This document shows positions 52,597 through 61,635 of a DNA stretch of 64,000 bases, piece after piece. A program made the position numbers and the translations under genes. The notes below the pieces were generated by a model. The model was not told where the DNA came from, searched no databases, and saw only the letters and a program-made list of their open reading frames with translations. The stretch's first letter is position 1. Each line of letters starts with the position of its first letter. Source of the DNA: an uncultured Chloroflexia bacterium (GTDB lineage Bacteria; Chloroflexota; Dehalococcoidia; UBA2979); the NCBI GenBank assembly GCA_963728205.1, contig CAVSIV010000001.1, positions 896,001-960,000 on the forward strand. Reading direction: 5' to 3'.

Positions 52597-52679
52597 TGCT
52601 TCGAGCCACGCCCGGTGAAGGCGCGGGCCGCGGCGTGAGGTGGCGAGCGGCACCTTCTCTCCAGGTGCCGCTCGAAGCA
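52597..52679. repeat. Family A palindromic element
   Basis: TGCTTCGAGC...GCCGCTCGAAGCA. Confidence 0.75.
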
Positions 52680-52762
52680 CGCTCCGGCTGCACGGCTCGC
52701 GCGAACCACCGTGCGGTCGCTACCATGTCGCGCGGCGGGGGCCGGGCGACCGAGAGGTCCCG

Positions 52763-53915
52763 ATGGTCTCCACGCTCATCTCCGGCGGCACGCTCGTCGA
52801 CGTCCTGCGCGGGCAGCGCTACCGCGCCGACCTCCTCGTGCGCGACGGCATCGTCGTTGAGCTCGGTGCGGTGTCCCCCGCGGGCGCGGATGCCGCCGAG
52901 GAGCGCTACGACGCCACCGGCCTCTACGTCGCGCCCGGCTTCATCGACATCCATACGCACGTCTTCAACCATGGCCTCTTCCCGACGACCCGCCTCTTCG
53001 CCGATCGCGTCGGCGTCGAGCAGGGCGTCGCCTGCCTGGTCGACGCGGGCTCATCCGGCGCCGTCACCGCCGACGCCTTCCCCGGTGTCGTGATCGAGAC
53101 GCAGCAGACGCCGGTGTTCGCGCTGATCAACATCGGCTCGCCGGGGCTGCCGGCCGTCGGCGGCGGACACTCGTCGCGGCCCGAGCTCGTCTCGCTCGAG
53201 GCGACGGTCGCCGCCGTCGAGCGCCATCGCGAGTGGGTGCGCGGCGTGAAGGTGCAGGCGTCGGCGAGCCACACGGGCGACTTCGGACTGACCGCCGTGC
53301 GGCTGGCGGTGAAGGCGGCGGAGCTCACGGGCGTGCCCCTGATGGCGCACGTCGGCAACGCGCCGCCGGTGCTCGACGACGTGCTCGCGATGCTGCGGCC
53401 CGGCGACATCGTGACGCACGCCTACCACGGCAAGGTCGGCGGCGCGCTCACGTATGGCGGCCGCGCGCTGCCGGCGCTGCGCGACGCCGTCGAGCGCGGC
53501 GTGTTCATCGACATCGGCCACGGCCGCTCGTCGTTCAGCTTCGCGACCGCCGAGCGCGCCTTCGCCGAGGGGCTGCCCGTGCACTCGATCAGCACCGACA
53601 TCCACCGCGGCAACGTCGACCGCTACGTCGTCTCGCAGGCGCGCACGATGACGAAGCTGCTGCTGCTCGGCATGCCGCTGGAGGAGGTGGTGCGCGCGGC
53701 GACCGTGACGCCGGCGCAGGCGCTGCGCCTCGACGCCGACGGCTTCGGCGTGCTCGACGTCGGGCGGCCGGCGCACATCAGCGTCTTCGCGCTGCGCGAC
53801 GATCCCATCGACCTCGAGGATTCGGAGGGCGAGGTACGGACCGCCCCGCAGTGGATTCGATCCGATCTCGGTGTTCGTCCACGGCCGGCGCTTCGATCGC
53901 ACCGCGCCGGTGTAG
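52763..53915 (+). CDS. Amidohydrolase/deacetylase (dihydroorotase-like, EF_0837 type) with an apparent 1-nt frameshift near 53857
   Basis: PGFIDIHTH, VDAGSSG, MAHVG, RPGDIVTHAYHG, DIGHGRSSFS, SISTD. The expected C-terminus DPISVFVHGRRFDRTAPV* is in the shifted frame. Confidence 0.82.
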
Positions 53916-53922
53916 GAGGCTC

Positions 53923-54000
53923 GCTTCGACCGGCGCTCGGTGAAGGCGCCGGTATCGGGCTCCGTGCATCACGCGCGCGTTCACCGCGCGCCGCTCGAAC
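53923..54000. repeat. Family A palindromic element
   Basis: GCTTCGACCGGCGC.CGGTGAA / TTCACCG.GCGCCGCTCGAAC. Confidence 0.75.
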
Positions 54001-54044
54001 GCGGCATGGCGGCCCACTACCCTCGCAGCGAACGGAGCCGCCGG

Positions 54045-55151
54045 ATGGACATCTACGAGCGCATCGGCGTCCCGACCGTGATCAACGCGGCCGGCAAGCT
54101 GACGGCGCTCGGGGGCACCGCGCAGGCGGCCGAGGTCGCGGAGGCGCAGGCCGCCGCCGCGCGCTCGCACGTGGACCTCGCCGGGCTGCGCCGGCGCGCG
54201 GGCGAGCTGGTCGCACAGCACACCGGGGCGGAGGGCGCGTCGGTGACGACCGGCGCCGCCGCGGGGGTGGTGATCGCGATCGCGGCGTGCGTGGCGGGCA
54301 GCGATCCGCGACGCGTGGCGCGGCTGCCCGACTGCGACGGCTGGCCGAACCGCGTGCTCGTCCAGGCCGGTCACTGGGTCAACTTCGGCGCGCCGGTCGA
54401 GCAGATGGTGCGCCTCGGCGGCGGCCGGCCGGAGCTGGTGGGCGACGTCAACAACGTGCCCGAGGAGCGGCTCGAGGCCGCGCTGGGCGACGGCACGCCC
54501 GTGGCGGCGCTGCTCTACGTGCAGTCGCACCACGCGGTGCAGGAGCGAATGGTCTCGCTCGCGCGCTGCCTGGACCTCGCGCACGCCGCGGGCGTGCCGG
54601 TGGTCGTCGACGCCGCCGCGGAGGAGGACCTGCGGCGGTACGTCGCGATGGGCGTGGACCTCGTGGCCTACTCCGGCGGGAAGGCCTTTGGCGGGCCGAC
54701 GGTCGGCTTCGTCGCCGGGCGGCGCGACCTGGTGGAGGCATGCGAGGCGCAAACGCATGGCATCGCGCGGCCGATGAAGGTGGGCAAGGAGCAGATCGCC
54801 GGACTGCTCGTCGCGCTGGAGCGCTATGCGCGCGACGACGAGGCATCGGAGCGCGAGCGCCGCCGCGGCGTGAACGCGATCGTGCAGCGCGCGCTCGCCG
54901 ACGCCGGCGAGGCGGAGCACTTCATTCGCATGGACGAGGCCGGGCGCCCGATCGAGCGCGTGGCGATCCGCGCGCGGGCCGGCGCCTTCGACGTGCGCGA
55001 GCTGGTCGCGTTCCTCGCCGACGGTTCGCCGAGCATCCGCACGCGCAACCATCACCTCGACGACGGGATCGTGCTGATCGACCCCCGCGAGGTGACGGAG
55101 CCGCAGGCGGAGCAGATCGCCGCGCGCCTGCGCGCGTTCTTCAAGAAGTAG
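54045..55151 (+). CDS. DgaE-like (SelA-related) PLP-dependent ammonia-lyase
   Basis: VINAAGKLTALGG, TGAAAG, GHWVNFGAPVEQM, SHHAVQ, VDAAAEEDL, YSGGKAFGGP, IARPMKVGKE. Confidence 0.85.
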   Translation: MDIYERIGVPTVINAAGKLTALGGTAQAAEVAEAQAAAARSHVDLAGLRRRAGELVAQHTGAEGASVTTGAAAGVVIAIAACVAGSDPRRVARLPDCDGWPNRVLVQAGHWVNFGAPVEQMVRLGGGRPELVGDVNNVPEERLEAALGDGTPVAALLYVQSHHAVQERMVSLARCLDLAHAAGVPVVVDAAAEEDLRRYVAMGVDLVAYSGGKAFGGPTVGFVAGRRDLVEACEAQTHGIARPMKVGKEQIAGLLVALERYARDDEASERERRRGVNAIVQRALADAGEAEHFIRMDEAGRPIERVAIRARAGAFDVRELVAFLADGSPSIRTRNHHLDDGIVLIDPREVTEPQAEQIAARLRAFFKK

Positions 55152-55168
55152 CGCGGTCGCCCGCGGGC

Positions 55169-55253
55169 TGCTTCGAGCGGCGCCTGGTGACGGCGCTGAG
55201 TCGAGGCGTTTCGCGGATGCCGGGTGCTCAGCGTGTCCATCACGCGCCGCTCG
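55169..55253. repeat. Family A element, left flank of erm-like gene (contains its stop codon)
   Basis: Near-identical to the reverse complement of the element at 56130-56226. Confidence 0.85.
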
Positions 55254-56067
55254 GACCGCCGTCCGTGCCGTTCGCGCCGCCGACCATCTGCCACGCGCGG
55301 AACACGCCGAGCCACTGGTCGAACGACAGCGCGGTCGGCGCGGCCGCGAGGTCGATGCGCAACTCCCGTGCGAAGCGGGCGATCTGCGCGGGCGTGAACG
55401 GGCGGCGCAGCGCGCCGCGCACCGTGGGCGGGCCGCCGAGCGCCGATGCGATGAAGCGCGCATACGTCGCCTCCTCGGTCGCGCGGAGCAGCGGGCGGTC
55501 GCGGCGCGCGAGCCAGAGCACGGCGCAGTCGACGCGCGGGGGCGGATCGAAGTCGGTGCGGTGCAGTCGCCGCGCGATCTCCACGTGCCAGCGCGGCTTC
55601 AGCAGCAGCGAACGCAGCGTCTCCGGCGCGTACGGTCCCCCGGCGAAGCGCTCGGCGGCCTCGCGCTGCACCACGAGGTACGCGTCGCGCGGCGGTCGCT
55701 CCGCGTCGGTGAGCCGCCGCACAATGCGTGTCGTCGACGCGAACGGCACGTTGCCGACGACGCGGTAGTCGTCGCCCGGAAGCGGCACGTCGAAGAAGTC
55801 GCGCGCGATCACCTCGACGTGTGGCGCGTCTGCGAACGCAAGGCGGAGCGCGGCGGCCAGGCGCGGGTCGAGCTCGACCGCGAGCAGCCGCGCGCAGCGC
55901 GCGGCGAGCGGCCGCGTCAGGGCGCCGGTACCCGCCCCGATCTCGACGACGAGATCGGCGGGCTCGACCGGCGAGCGAGCGATCAGATCAGCGGCGAGGG
56001 CGCCCCTGCGGAGGAAGTGCTGACCGAGATCGGCGCGTCGCGCAGCGCGGCGCCGCACCCCGGACAC
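55240..56067 (-). CDS. erm: Erm-like 23S rRNA adenine-N6 methyltransferase (putative MLSB resistance)
   Basis: LGQHFL, VEIGAGTGALT, VELD, VVGNVPF, VVQREAA, FDPPPRVD, LSFDQW. Looks closer to Erm than to KsgA; start uncertain. Confidence 0.75.
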   Translation of the reverse strand: MSGVRRRAARRADLGQHFLRRGALAADLIARSPVEPADLVVEIGAGTGALTRPLAARCARLLAVELDPRLAAALRLAFADAPHVEVIARDFFDVPLPGDDYRVVGNVPFASTTRIVRRLTDAERPPRDAYLVVQREAAERFAGGPYAPETLRSLLLKPRWHVEIARRLHRTDFDPPPRVDCAVLWLARRDRPLLRATEEATYARFIASALGGPPTVRGALRRPFTPAQIARFARELRIDLAAAPTALSFDQWLGVFRAWQMVGGANGTDGGPSGA

Positions 56068-56086
56068 GGATGACCATCACAGACAT
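55988..56086 (-). promoter_or_regulatory. Putative erm leader ORF MSVMVIRVRG... (32 aa) overlapping erm out of frame
   Basis: GAGAGGGAG 6 nt before ATG 56086; TACACT -10 at 56119-56114; R-V-R at codons 7-9. Confidence 0.55.
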
Positions 56087-56129
56087 GCGGGGCTCCCTCT
56101 CGGTGCGCGTGGGAGTGTACATGCCCGGA

Positions 56130-56226
56130 GCGTGCTTCGAGCGGCGCGTGATGGACGCCCTGAGCACCCGGCATCCGCGCAACGCCTCGCACTCAGCGCC
56201 TTGACCAGGCGCCGCTCGAAGCACGC
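56130..56226. repeat. Family A element, right flank of erm-like gene
   Basis: Perfect 18-bp terminal IR GCGTGCTTCGAGCGGCGC / GCGCCGCTCGAAGCACGC. Confidence 0.88.
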
Positions 56227-56229
56227 TTC

Positions 56230-56901
56230 CTATGCCCGTGCGGCGGCCACCGCCTCGACCGCCGCGCGGAACCCCGCCTCCAGCCGCGGCCAGTCGCCGG
56301 CGGCGATCGCGTCGCGCGGGAAGAGCGCGCCGCCGATGCTCAGGCACACCGCGCCGGCCTCGACGTACGCGCGCACCTCGGCGGCGTCCGCGCTCACGCC
56401 GCCGCTCGGCATGATCGGTGCGTGCGCGAACGGGCCGAGCAGCGCGCGCACCGCCGCCGGCCCACCCAGCTCGCGCGCCGGGAACAGCTTGAGCAGGTCC
56501 GCGCCGGCCTCCAGCGCCGCGCTCAGCTCGGTCGCTGTCGCGACGCCGGCGGCGTACACCGCGCCGCGTCGCGCGCACAGCCGCGCGACGTCGACGTTGA
56601 GGTTCGGCCCGACGATGAACCGCGCGCCGGCGTTCACGTACTGCGCGGCGGTGGCAGGCTCGGTGACGGTTCCGGCGCCGAGCACGAGCGACGGCAGGTC
56701 GCGCCGCGCCTCCGCCGCGAGCGTGGTGAAGACGTCGACCGCGCTCGGCCCGCGGTTCACGAACTCCAGGACCGTGCAGCCGCCGACGACGGCCGCCCGC
56801 GCGATCGTCGCCGCGGCTGCGGCGTCGTCGACATAGAAGTTCGGCATCACGCCGACGCGGACGATCTCGTTCAGCGTCGCGAGCCGCGGTGGGAGCTTCA
56901 C
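56230..56901 (-). CDS. eda: KDPG/KHG aldolase
   Basis: LEFVNRG, LGAGTV, GARFIVGP, LKLFPA, IMPSGGV; GTG start overlaps the upstream gene's stop (GTGA). Confidence 0.88.
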   Translation of the reverse strand: MKLPPRLATLNEIVRVGVMPNFYVDDAAAAATIARAAVVGGCTVLEFVNRGPSAVDVFTTLAAEARRDLPSLVLGAGTVTEPATAAQYVNAGARFIVGPNLNVDVARLCARRGAVYAAGVATATELSAALEAGADLLKLFPARELGGPAAVRALLGPFAHAPIMPSGGVSADAAEVRAYVEAGAVCLSIGGALFPRDAIAAGDWPRLEAGFRAAVEAVAAARA

Positions 56902-57770
56902 GCGCGTGCCTCCACCGGTACGCGCTCGACCGCGACGCGCTCGAAGCGGTAGCCGTGCTCCACGCGCGACAGCCGCCCGACGGTGAGGATCGGGAAGTGC
57001 CCACCGGAGACGAGCGCGTCCTCGCGGATCGCGCGCTCGGCGAACGCCCGGCGCGACGCCACGGCGCGCGGCGGGTCGAGGTCGAACACCGGCGTCCATT
57101 CCGGGTGCTCGAGGTGCGCCACGTTCGGCGCGGCGTCGCCGGTGAGGAACAGACGCTCGCCCTGCGACTCGATCAGCACCGAGCAGTGCCCGGGCGTGTG
57201 GCCGGGCGTCGGCACGAACGTCATCCCCGTCCGCGGCGAATACTCGCCGTCGAAGGTCTCGAGCAGGCCGGCGTCGCGCACCGGCAGCACGCGCGACCGC
57301 GAGAACCGGTTGCCGGGCGTGTCGGGCGAGCCGGGGTCGTCCAGGTACGCGACGTCCGCCGCGTGCAGGAAGAAGATCGCGTTTGGGAATGTCAGCGGAC
57401 CGCCATCGTCGTGCGTGTTCCAGCCGACGTGGTCGCCGTGGAAGTGCGTGAGCAGGACGGTGTCGACGTCGTGCGGGTCCACGCCGAGCGACGCGAGGCG
57501 GTCGAGCAGCCCCGCGGCACCCTCGTGCCGGCCGCGCGTGCGCTCGCCGTTGCCGGTGTCGATGAGCGTCGTGTGGCCGGCGCCGCGCACGAGAAACGAG
57601 CCGAAGTTCACGGGCAGCGTCGCGCGCGGGTCGACGGCGCCGACGGCCGTCATCCACGCGGCGTCGTCGACGCCGGGAAACCAGTCGGACGGCTGCTGTT
57701 CGCCGACGCCGTCGGACAGCGCCGCGACGTGGAGTGCCCCCAGGCGGAACTGTTCGACGAGCGTACTCAT
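56898..57770 (-). CDS. Metallo-beta-lactamase-fold hydrolase (lactonase-like)
   Basis: LIDTG, THFHGDHVG, PGHTPGH, TGD, GHFP; strong SD GGAGGAG. Confidence 0.88.
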   Translation of the reverse strand: MSTLVEQFRLGALHVAALSDGVGEQQPSDWFPGVDDAAWMTAVGAVDPRATLPVNFGSFLVRGAGHTTLIDTGNGERTRGRHEGAAGLLDRLASLGVDPHDVDTVLLTHFHGDHVGWNTHDDGGPLTFPNAIFFLHAADVAYLDDPGSPDTPGNRFSRSRVLPVRDAGLLETFDGEYSPRTGMTFVPTPGHTPGHCSVLIESQGERLFLTGDAAPNVAHLEHPEWTPVFDLDPPRAVASRRAFAERAIREDALVSGGHFPILTVGRLSRVEHGYRFERVAVERVPVEARA

Positions 57771-61008: not shown

Positions 61009-61635
61009 CGCGCGCCCTGCCCGACGCCGCCGCCGTCGCGCGCGAGCTGCTCGCGCACGCGCGCACCGCGTTCGCCCCGCCGGCGCTCGCGTACGCCGGC
61101 GGTGCCACGCGCGCCCGCCGCGAGGCCGCCACGCAGAACACGCTCGCCGCGCAGGGCTACCCCTGCGCGCGCGTGATCGACATCGGCGACGCGGCCACGA
61201 TCGCACAGCGACTTCCACCCGCTCAACATCCTCGTGCAGGGGACGCGCGTGACGGGCGTGCTCGACTGGGGCGGCGTGGCGGTCGCCGACCCGCACTACG
61301 ACGTCGCGTGCACGATCGTCCTCAACCTCTGGGGTCCGGCAGAGATCCCGCGCGTGCTCGCGCGGCCGTTCGCCGCGATGCGCACCGCGCTCAACGCGCA
61401 GTACCGCCGGGCCTACGCGCGGCTGCGGCCGCTCGACGACCACCGGCTCGCCTACTACGAGGCGTTCGCCATCGCCGTCCGCCTGTACGAGGTCGCGGAG
61501 GCGCGGGCGGCGGGCGGGCACAGCGCGTGGGACCAGCCCGGGCTGCCCGACCGGCTCGCGCGCCGTTTCGCGGCGCTCACGGGCGAGGCCGCGGCGCCCG
61601 GGGCCGGTGCAGAGCCGGAGGTGACATGGCTGTGA
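61005..61635 (+). pseudogene. Degenerate phosphotransferase (APH-like) remnant
   Basis: Fragments RREAATQ...GYPCARV, then, after a frameshift near 61204, HSDFHPLNIL...VLDW...DPHYD. Much shorter than a full APH. Confidence 0.65.

Follow-up and report, generated by a model that had tools for sequence, protein, structure and literature searches.

In the 64,000-nucleotide (nt) stretch analysed here (the window; positions 896,001 to 960,000 of contig CAVSIV010000001.1, assembly GCA_963728205.1, from an uncultured Chloroflexia bacterium), the start codon of a minus-strand erm gene lies inside the codons of a candidate ribosome-arrest motif, which belongs to a short open reading frame (ORF), hereafter the leader, that runs out of frame into the gene. 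This layout was found in 56 loci, namely the window, 27 genome loci, 27 metagenome loci and the variant L091, which together represent 51 distinct sequences; the embedded triplet is GTG in 50 of them and ATG in one (L091). The reading we tentatively favour, although we would stop short of calling it probable as a whole, is that of a compact, probably macrolide-sensing translational switch, in which the drug would arrest the ribosome at an Arg-X-Arg (R-X-R) motif and translation would then re-initiate at the embedded start codon, with no hairpin switch involved.

The leader (55988..56086, minus strand) consists of 32 codons and a TGA stop, encodes MSVMVIRVRGAAPRCATRRSRSALPPQGRPRR (beginning MSVMVIRVR) and is conserved only up to R9. 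It opens at ATG 56086 with MSVMVIRVRGAAPRC, and its stop codon (55990-55988) lies 80 nt within erm. The erm GTG (56065..56067, minus strand) is located 19 bases downstream of the leader ATG in the +1 frame relative to the leader, and, as judged from the sequence and from pairing energy, it has no Shine-Dalgarno (SD) sequence of its own. It is composed of the last two bases of CGT (Arg7, 56068-56066) and the first base of GTC (Val8, 56065-56063), and these two codons and the following CGG (Arg9, 56062-56060) form a candidate arrest motif of the +X+ type (56060..56068, minus strand). Upstream, the erm frame is closed by a TGA (56079-56077), which overlaps leader codons 3-4 and lies 9 nt before the GTG. 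An earlier note on this DNA had described an SD-led leader of 32 residues that stops about 80 nt inside erm, an erm frame at +1 that is closed at leader codons 3-4 and begins at a GTG without a clear SD, and an R-V-R motif within the overlap. All of this can be read in the sequence, and comparison with relatives, described below, adds that the leader is conserved in 55 further loci and that R-X-R is under selection in the leader frame. Such comparison matters because alternative-frame ORFs are common at 72% G+C, so that an ORF of 32 residues is weak evidence by itself. In the mechanical ORF list, the leader appears as the 3' end of a 338-residue ORF (55988-57004, minus strand); this ORF and another of 1042 residues (52640-55768, plus strand) cross several real genes in other frames, are typical of high-G+C DNA and are not genes. 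An Rfam scan of the leader region returned no family, only chance matches below the gathering score on the palindromic repeat described below.

The gene itself (55240..56067, minus strand) encodes a 275-residue protein assigned by its Pfam and NCBIfam matches as an Erm-type 23S rRNA adenine N6-methyltransferase. The protein matched the Pfam family RrnaAD (PF00398; E = 6.1e-37) over residues 11-257, that is, the KsgA/Erm fold over its full length. It scored 216.3 bits against NCBIfam NF000499 (Erm23S_rRNA_broad; cut-off 212, passed by a narrow margin) and 133.2 bits against TIGR00755 (ksgA), below that family's cut-off of 171, which indicates Erm rather than KsgA/RsmA. The closest solved chains were 6nvm_A (E = 3.8e-25) and Erm(38) 7f8a (E = 7e-24). 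A separate KsgA-like paralogue with 36% identity is present in the same genome (G000:C2:618283-618876), so erm is additional to the housekeeping KsgA/RsmA. The product is predicted to be an Erm-type A2058 methyltransferase conferring MLS-B resistance (against the macrolide, lincosamide and streptogramin B classes).

Among 41 related genomes, six besides the window's own have an orthologue (45-59% identity), and five of the six share the layout, which consists of an SD, an ATG, 5-8 codons, and CGT-GNN-CGN with the erm GTG straddling the first two motif codons. A scan using one genome per species yielded 68 erm-like loci, 27 of them with the overlap; by record title, these belong to Chloroflexota, mostly Dehalococcoidia (16), to Gemmatimonadota (9) and to metagenome-assembled genomes (MAGs) labelled Gammaproteobacteria (2). 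The remaining 41 comprise three 5'-truncated close relatives (L072, L074 and L079), three partial loci and 35 with other starts. Two of the truncated relatives, L072 and L074 (Gemmatimonadetes MAGs), match only residues 112-262, and L079 (a Longimicrobiales MAG) matches only residues 22-232; none of them includes the leader or start region, and they look like gene remnants. The metagenome scan retained 80 loci, 27 with the GTG layout, plus L091 with ATG in its place. In an Erm tree of 57 proteins, all 28 overlap rows fell on one side of a single branch (SH-like approximate likelihood-ratio test, SH-aLRT, 98). In a tree of 137 rows, the overlap label required one change, and 54 of the 56 overlap rows formed a set supported at 99, the full split being supported at 69; in reading these values, it should be kept in mind that the groups are defined by the overlap feature itself and that relatives are not independent. 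Every clade member with an intact 5' end has the overlap layout, and no sampled outsider has it. From these sequences, the arrangement is ancestral to this erm clade as a whole.

The position of the leader stop is not shared to the same extent. It lies 38-80 nt inside erm (173 nt in one case) and never at the junction in any of the 51 sequences, and the leader is 18-37 residues long among relatives, with one of 65. In this last case (L077, a Longimicrobiales MAG), the usual stop has been lost, giving a leader of 65 codons and an overlap of 173 nt, which indicates that the position of the leader stop is not constrained. No in-frame fusion of leader and erm was found among the 56 loci. Nor is there any conserved alternative in-frame start between the arrest site and the essential QHFL motif of Erm; the window has, besides GTG 56067, only GTG 56058, three codons later, L003 has a GTG at codon 5, L006 has one at codon 3, and other loci have none.

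The codons around the embedded start were then compared among the 51 sequences. The base preceding the embedded triplet is C in all of them, and the codon that it opens is CGT (Arg) in 50, while CGT accounts for 11.7% of all Arg codons across these erm ORFs and for 2.4% of those in neighbouring genes of the window. The third motif codon encodes Arg in 35 of the 51 (CGG in 20, CGC in 10, CGT in 2, CGA in 1 and AGG in 2), and 34 sequences keep R-X-R whole. Both AGG codons, which still encode Arg, occur in the two sequences whose erm codon 2 has an unusual A at its wobble position. Since bases 2-3 of the third motif codon are bases 1-2 of erm codon 3, erm residue 3 is variable (G, A, V or E); at erm residue 2, the amino acids found are S, A, P, F and Y. 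The X residue is Val in 44 sequences, Ala in four and Gly in three. Before the overlap, the leader codons show synonymous changes (TCT/TCC, CTG/TTG, GTG/GTA and CGT/CGC) within a hydrophobic pattern, and nothing is conserved in the leader beyond R-X-R. The retention of Arg through all four CGN codons and AGG indicates selection on the leader frame. Taken with the codon comparison as a whole, this points to selection on the leader frame up to the last Arg, combined with selection on the start codon in the erm frame.

Ribosome entry was evaluated from SD strength, taken as the predicted duplex energy with a generic anti-SD motif, with -6 kcal/mol or stronger as the threshold. In the window, the leader ATG is preceded by GAGAGGGAG (56093..56101, minus strand; core GGGAG, 6-nt spacer; identified by anti-SD pairing), which pairs at -8.2 kcal/mol, as against -3.0 kcal/mol before the erm GTG and an internal background median of -3.0 kcal/mol. 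The same holds for the relatives: the leader ATGs of 50 distinct sequences had a median of -7.4 kcal/mol, with 41 of the 50 reaching the threshold, whereas the embedded erm starts had a median of -3.0 kcal/mol, with 8 of 51 reaching it, against a background of -3.0 kcal/mol and 20%. An internal SD for the GTG was also considered, as A[T/G]GGT is visible by eye 9-12 nt upstream, and was rejected because its pairing energies are at background. In four distinct sequences (L104, L107/L108, L109 and L111/L112), the leader has no SD, and a TAnnnT hexamer (TAAGCT, TAAACT or TATACT) ends 7-8 nt before the ATG; this spacing suggests that their mRNAs may be leaderless, starting at the leader start codon, in which case ribosomes could enter there only at the leader. 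The combination of an SD (or a leaderless appearance) at the leader with background pairing at the erm start indicates that ribosomes are recruited to the leader and not to erm.

A -10-like hexamer, TACACT (56114..56119, minus strand; a TAnnnT match only), is located about 27 nt before the leader ATG, and a TAnnnT hexamer occurs 24-33 nt before it in the related loci displayed. The earlier note had called this hexamer a -10 box. The hexamer is present, but a sigma-70 scan of positions 54900-56500 of the window found no two-hexamer promoter and no -35 partner, so that the -10 assignment is that of a TAnnnT match alone. A putative transcript start just upstream of the leader ORF would be consistent with the position of this hexamer.

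Masking of the GTG by a hairpin, as in a conventional attenuator, was also evaluated. In many members, CCGTG or GTGTCC has a potential downstream pairing partner, CACGG or GGACAC. When compared with mononucleotide shuffles, however, the z-scores for hairpin selection were mostly near 0, and a masking hairpin was rejected because pairing of the GTG did not exceed that in controls, which were erm sequences with their synonymous codons re-drawn.

Sister-clade erm genes (Ktedonobacteria-type and others, with 35-46% identity to the window protein) have ordinary SD-ATG starts, with a median anti-SD energy of -9.3 kcal/mol. Some of them are preceded by a separate leader of 7-10 codons, M[I/T]R[I/L]R[Q/H/K][V/I] (e.g. 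MIRIRQV), that stops approximately 185-240 nt upstream of erm (6 of 35 and 13 of 46 loci; L043, L044, L048, L050, L054, L063, L114, L116, L119, L131-L135, L139, L145 and L154). These separate R-X-R leaders tie an R-X-R peptide to the control of erm in this Erm family. In the ErmD leader (ErmDL), translation arrests at Arg6-Leu7-Arg8, with Leu occupying the P site and Arg the A site, and many of the arrested complexes have no A-site tRNA (PMC8298421). By analogy with ErmDL, and given the conservation of R-X-R and the leaders of the sister clade, a macrolide-sensing role for the overlapping leader is likely.

On these grounds, the switch might operate as described below. In the absence of drug, ribosomes would translate the leader past the GTG without interruption and end out of frame, 38-80 nt into erm, and little Erm would be made. 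In the presence of a macrolide or ketolide bound in the tunnel, translation would be arrested once 8-10 residues had been joined, as on ErmDL, the P site then being occupied by Val and the A site by Arg, which would put the ribosome right over the start codon of erm. Drop-off of the peptidyl-tRNA or splitting of the subunits would then resolve the arrest, and the small subunit or vacant 70S ribosome left on the mRNA would accept initiator tRNA at the adjacent GTG and translate erm. Macrolides have been reported to promote drop-off of short peptidyl-tRNAs, after which ribosomes can restart (PMC8934632). In effect, the drug would make a ribosome that is elongating behave as a 'terminating' one positioned over the next start codon, which would amount to drug-dependent termination-reinitiation coupling.

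The geometry of the overlap constrains which ribosome can make Erm. A ribosome arrested at Val8 covers both the GTG and the region of the leader ATG, and no conserved alternative start exists before QHFL, so a second ribosome cannot start erm while the first stays in place; the classical model in which a stalled ribosome opens a hairpin for another ribosome cannot, therefore, apply. With a second ribosome blocked and no selected hairpin found, the ribosome that makes Erm must be the one that came in at the leader. Whether a macrolide-arrested ribosome is converted on the spot into an Erm-making ribosome, through drop-off or splitting followed by initiation or through a change of frame, with roughly one Erm made per drug-hit ribosome, is to our minds an evenly balanced question. 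The same even weight applies to the broader proposal that such conversion would constitute a hairpin-free, stoichiometric antibiotic sensor conserved in an erm clade of Chloroflexota and Gemmatimonadota.

Several points weigh against a drug-dependent switch of this kind. We infer all three of its steps, namely drug dependence, arrest and re-initiation. A stably arrested ribosome covers the GTG, so that re-initiation needs a resolution step that is unproven, and classical arrested ErmCL and ErmDL complexes are long-lived. The N-terminus of Erm is itself rich in Arg-X-Arg (MSGVRRRAARR), and a re-initiated, drug-bound ribosome might stall again on it. The GTG had a mean pairing probability of 0.81 in the native sequences versus 0.75 in the synonymous-codon controls, and no selected RNA structure was detected in this comparison. 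The NCBIfam Erm score barely exceeds its cut-off. In addition, the strict +X+ motif is not universal. Of the 51 distinct sequences, 15 form a subclade, MSTFV[L/M]VRRV[Q/H], with Gln or His in place of the last Arg, and the motif is also broken in L095 (RVW, with Trp at the last position) and in L091 (HVR). For the subclade, an explanation may lie in ErmDL, in which the complete +X+ motif is dispensable for arrest with erythromycin (PMC8298421); by analogy, the RRV[Q/H] leaders may still sense cladinose-bearing macrolides. L091 (L091:356-470, on a metagenome contig) has the leader codons CAT GTC with an embedded ATG and the peptide MPTYVTVRHVR; it has lost the first motif Arg and gained a stronger start codon, and may be a de-regulated form of the switch.

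Four other explanations of the overlap were weighed. The possibility that it is an artefact of a 1-nt assembly indel or of a mis-assigned erm start is refuted by the comparative data and has a negligible probability. The window does come from a six-contig genome of 89% completeness, and no public sequencing run was found to contain the stretch (best share of sampled words, 0.10), nor was any RNA run listed for it, but 55 other loci, from independent assemblies and, by record title, from at least two phyla, show the same frame relation. Contigs of runs X1-X4 aligned to the stretch yielded only pieces from other organisms; one of them, a 108-nt contig from a relative (run X4, record 31), covers 55988-56087 ungapped, with 13 substitutions. 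The mis-assignment of the start is opposed by the TGA closing the erm frame 9 nt before the GTG and by GTG 56058 being the sole other start before QHFL. The earlier note had allowed that an indel might underlie the overlap or that homologues might lack the upstream ORF; the frame relation common to independent genomes excludes the former, and the upstream ORF and the overlap are kept in the homologous erm loci. The same note had proposed frameshifting or re-initiation directly into erm, and of these two routes the presence of a start-codon triplet in 51 of 51 sequences favours the second. In an arrest-coupled change of frame, which we regard as unlikely, peptidyl-tRNA-Val would slip by -2 from GUC to GUG, or the ribosome would shift by +1, and Erm would carry 7-10 leader residues at its N-terminus. 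This would use the arrested ribosome directly, with no rescue step; G-U-G-U-C contains two overlapping Val codons, X is Val in 44 of the 51, and the new A-site codon would specify a small, non-basic residue such as Ser, Ala or Pro in place of the blocked Arg, in keeping with the relief of ErmDL arrest by small residues replacing the A-site Arg (PMC8298421). A precedent is the ermC leader, in which regulatory frameshifting is induced by ketolides (Gupta 2013, cited from PMC5009743). However, re-pairing by -2 (GUC, GUU or GUA to GUG) is possible in only 43 of the 51 sequences, being impossible in the seven with Ala (GCC) or Gly (GGC) at X and in L091, where the embedded triplet is ATG and there is no Val codon to slip to. 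No re-pairing was found for a +1 slip (GUC to UCC) or for the A-site tRNA, and a search for a stimulatory element found no structure above the null and internal SD-like pairing at background. Simple +1 slippage was rejected, as it has no re-pairing or slippery sequence and would leave the near-invariant CGT (50 of 51), which it does not need, unexplained. The absence of in-frame leader-erm fusions from the 56 loci also counts against a change of frame. Re-initiation is, thus, favoured over a change of frame by the start codon in all 51 sequences (one of them ATG), by the Ala or Gly at X in seven and by the lack of a slippery sequence or stimulator.

The leader could instead act independently of any drug, as a constitutive landing pad for the SD-less erm start, with R-X-R pausing or destabilising short peptidyl-tRNAs and erm being expressed at a low constitutive level. 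To this explanation we assign a low probability. It would account for an erm start without an SD behind a leader with an SD or a leaderless appearance, for the 15 of 51 sequences that keep the overlap without a complete +X+ motif, and for the failure to detect a structure switch. It does not account for the selection of Arg at both flanking positions through several codons, and the homologous R-[I/L]-R leaders of the sister clade are separate, classical leaders of the sensor type; constitutive expression could be had more simply from an ordinary SD in front of erm, of the kind seen in the sister clade. It is very unlikely, in our judgement, that the leader acts in a purely negative or indirect manner, either by occluding a weakly used GTG or because an arrested ribosome stabilises the mRNA, with Erm arising from independent, SD-less binding of 30S subunits. 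In many of the leaders with six codons, codon 4 is ATG or AGG followed by G/T-T, giving a weak AGGT or TGGT 9-12 nt before the GTG, 8 of the 51 erm starts pair at -6 kcal/mol or stronger, and stabilisation of mRNA by stalled ribosomes has been reported for erm genes (PMC5118997). Nevertheless, the median SD energy equals background, the leaderless-type members leave just 25 nt of 5' RNA before the GTG, and a ribosome arrested with its P site 2 nt from the GTG would block it, so that arrest would repress rather than induce. Drug-dependent arrest followed by re-initiation remains the reading that we tentatively prefer.

A palindromic repeat of approximately 105 nt (56123..56227; arms 56129-56164 and 56192-56227, 83% complementary) lies between the upstream aldolase gene and the erm promoter region, and a second copy (55159..55268), which is 93% identical to the first, extends over the final 29 nt of erm. 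The C-terminal tail of Erm (GGANGTDGGPSGA) is partly encoded by this downstream copy. The repeat resembles repetitive extragenic palindromic (REP) sequences or miniature inverted-repeat transposable elements (MITEs) and matches the 4.1-Mb genome 51 times, frequently in clusters of tandem copies; two copies flank erm. The upstream copy may insulate or terminate and is not part of the switch. The neighbours of erm encode a 2-keto-3-deoxy-6-phosphogluconate (KDPG) aldolase, a metallo-beta-lactamase (MBL)-fold hydrolase, a SelA-like pyridoxal phosphate (PLP) enzyme, an FGGY kinase and an amidohydrolase. As these are ordinary metabolic genes, a mobile-element or resistance-island setting was rejected. 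Elsewhere in the window, a 133-residue ORF (61234-61635, plus strand) has a match to the APH phosphotransferase family (PF01636, E = 6e-07) that is confined to the family's C-terminal part; it may represent a gene fragment or else a short gene of kinase-like type.

For nascent-peptide and antibiotic sensing, inducible erm genes serve as the textbook example, and, to our knowledge, the described inducible erm leaders all end upstream of the gene and remodel RNA structure. A start codon inside the arrest codons, conserved in 51 distinct sequences, cannot work by this classical switch. If the arrest proves to be drug-dependent, the system would reveal how a bacterial ribosome, once arrested, can be put back to use within a few bases, for initiation or in a different frame, and it would represent a minimal (<60 nt) drug-responsive expression element. 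The survey also indicates a wide distribution, among uncultured environmental phyla, of erm genes with sensor leaders. The literature searches, which covered papers open without subscription, found no description of a leader that overlaps the start codon of erm, and a term search of a survey of erm upstream regions (PMC11264731) found no such leader.

Classical attenuators have a leader that stops upstream of erm and a spacer whose alternative hairpins mask or unmask the SD and start codon. The earlier note had contrasted the window's leader with classical ones, which end upstream of erm, and the comparison supports the contrast: the leader overlaps erm by 80 nt (38-173 nt in relatives), there is no spacer, no selected hairpin was detected, and the erm start has no SD. 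The closest likeness is to ErmDL (MTHSMRLR, of the RLR class), which is also a short, SD-led ORF on the erm transcript with Arg-aliphatic-Arg 6-11 codons from its start, and for both leaders arrest is expected while X occupies the P site and Arg the A site (PMC8298421). ErmDL, however, ends upstream of erm and works through alternative RNA structures, whereas the window leader has no spacer, showed no selected hairpin, contains the erm start inside its arrest codons and, in the clade, runs 38-80 nt into erm. A similar contrast holds with the leaders of the sister clade (e.g. L043, L044, L050, L114 and L131). They belong to the same Erm family and have an R-aliphatic-R core near the start of the peptide, but they are separate and lie upstream of erm genes that themselves have a strong SD and an ATG, which is the textbook arrangement, while the window leader overlaps its gene.

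Frameshifting in the ermC leader is comparable in that a drug bound in the tunnel changes the frame of the ribosome translating the leader and thereby switches on erm (PMC5009743). There, the shifted ribosome passes the leader stop and unfolds the ribosome-binding site of ermC without translating erm, whereas the embedded triplet in the window behaves as a start codon. An A-rich slippery stretch is reportedly involved in the ermC case, and the window has no slippery sequence. An out-of-frame overlap is known from erm(B), in which ermBL2, a GTG-started ORF overlapping the end of ermBL, is required for induction (PMC8274638); ermBL2 is a second leader upstream of ermB that overlaps the C-terminal codons of the first, whereas in the window it is the resistance gene itself that overlaps, and it does so at the arrest site. 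Under the explanation that we prefer, the system also resembles termination-reinitiation coupling at ATGA or TGATG junctions, as an SD-less start would be served by a ribosome coming from an upstream ORF. Coupled gene pairs, however, have a stop codon at the junction, whereas the leader stop here lies 38-80 nt downstream and the 'termination' would be a drug-imposed arrest. Without the defining features of classical attenuators, coupled pairs or frameshift sites, the system would, as proposed, work like a sensor of the ErmDL type joined to termination-reinitiation coupling.

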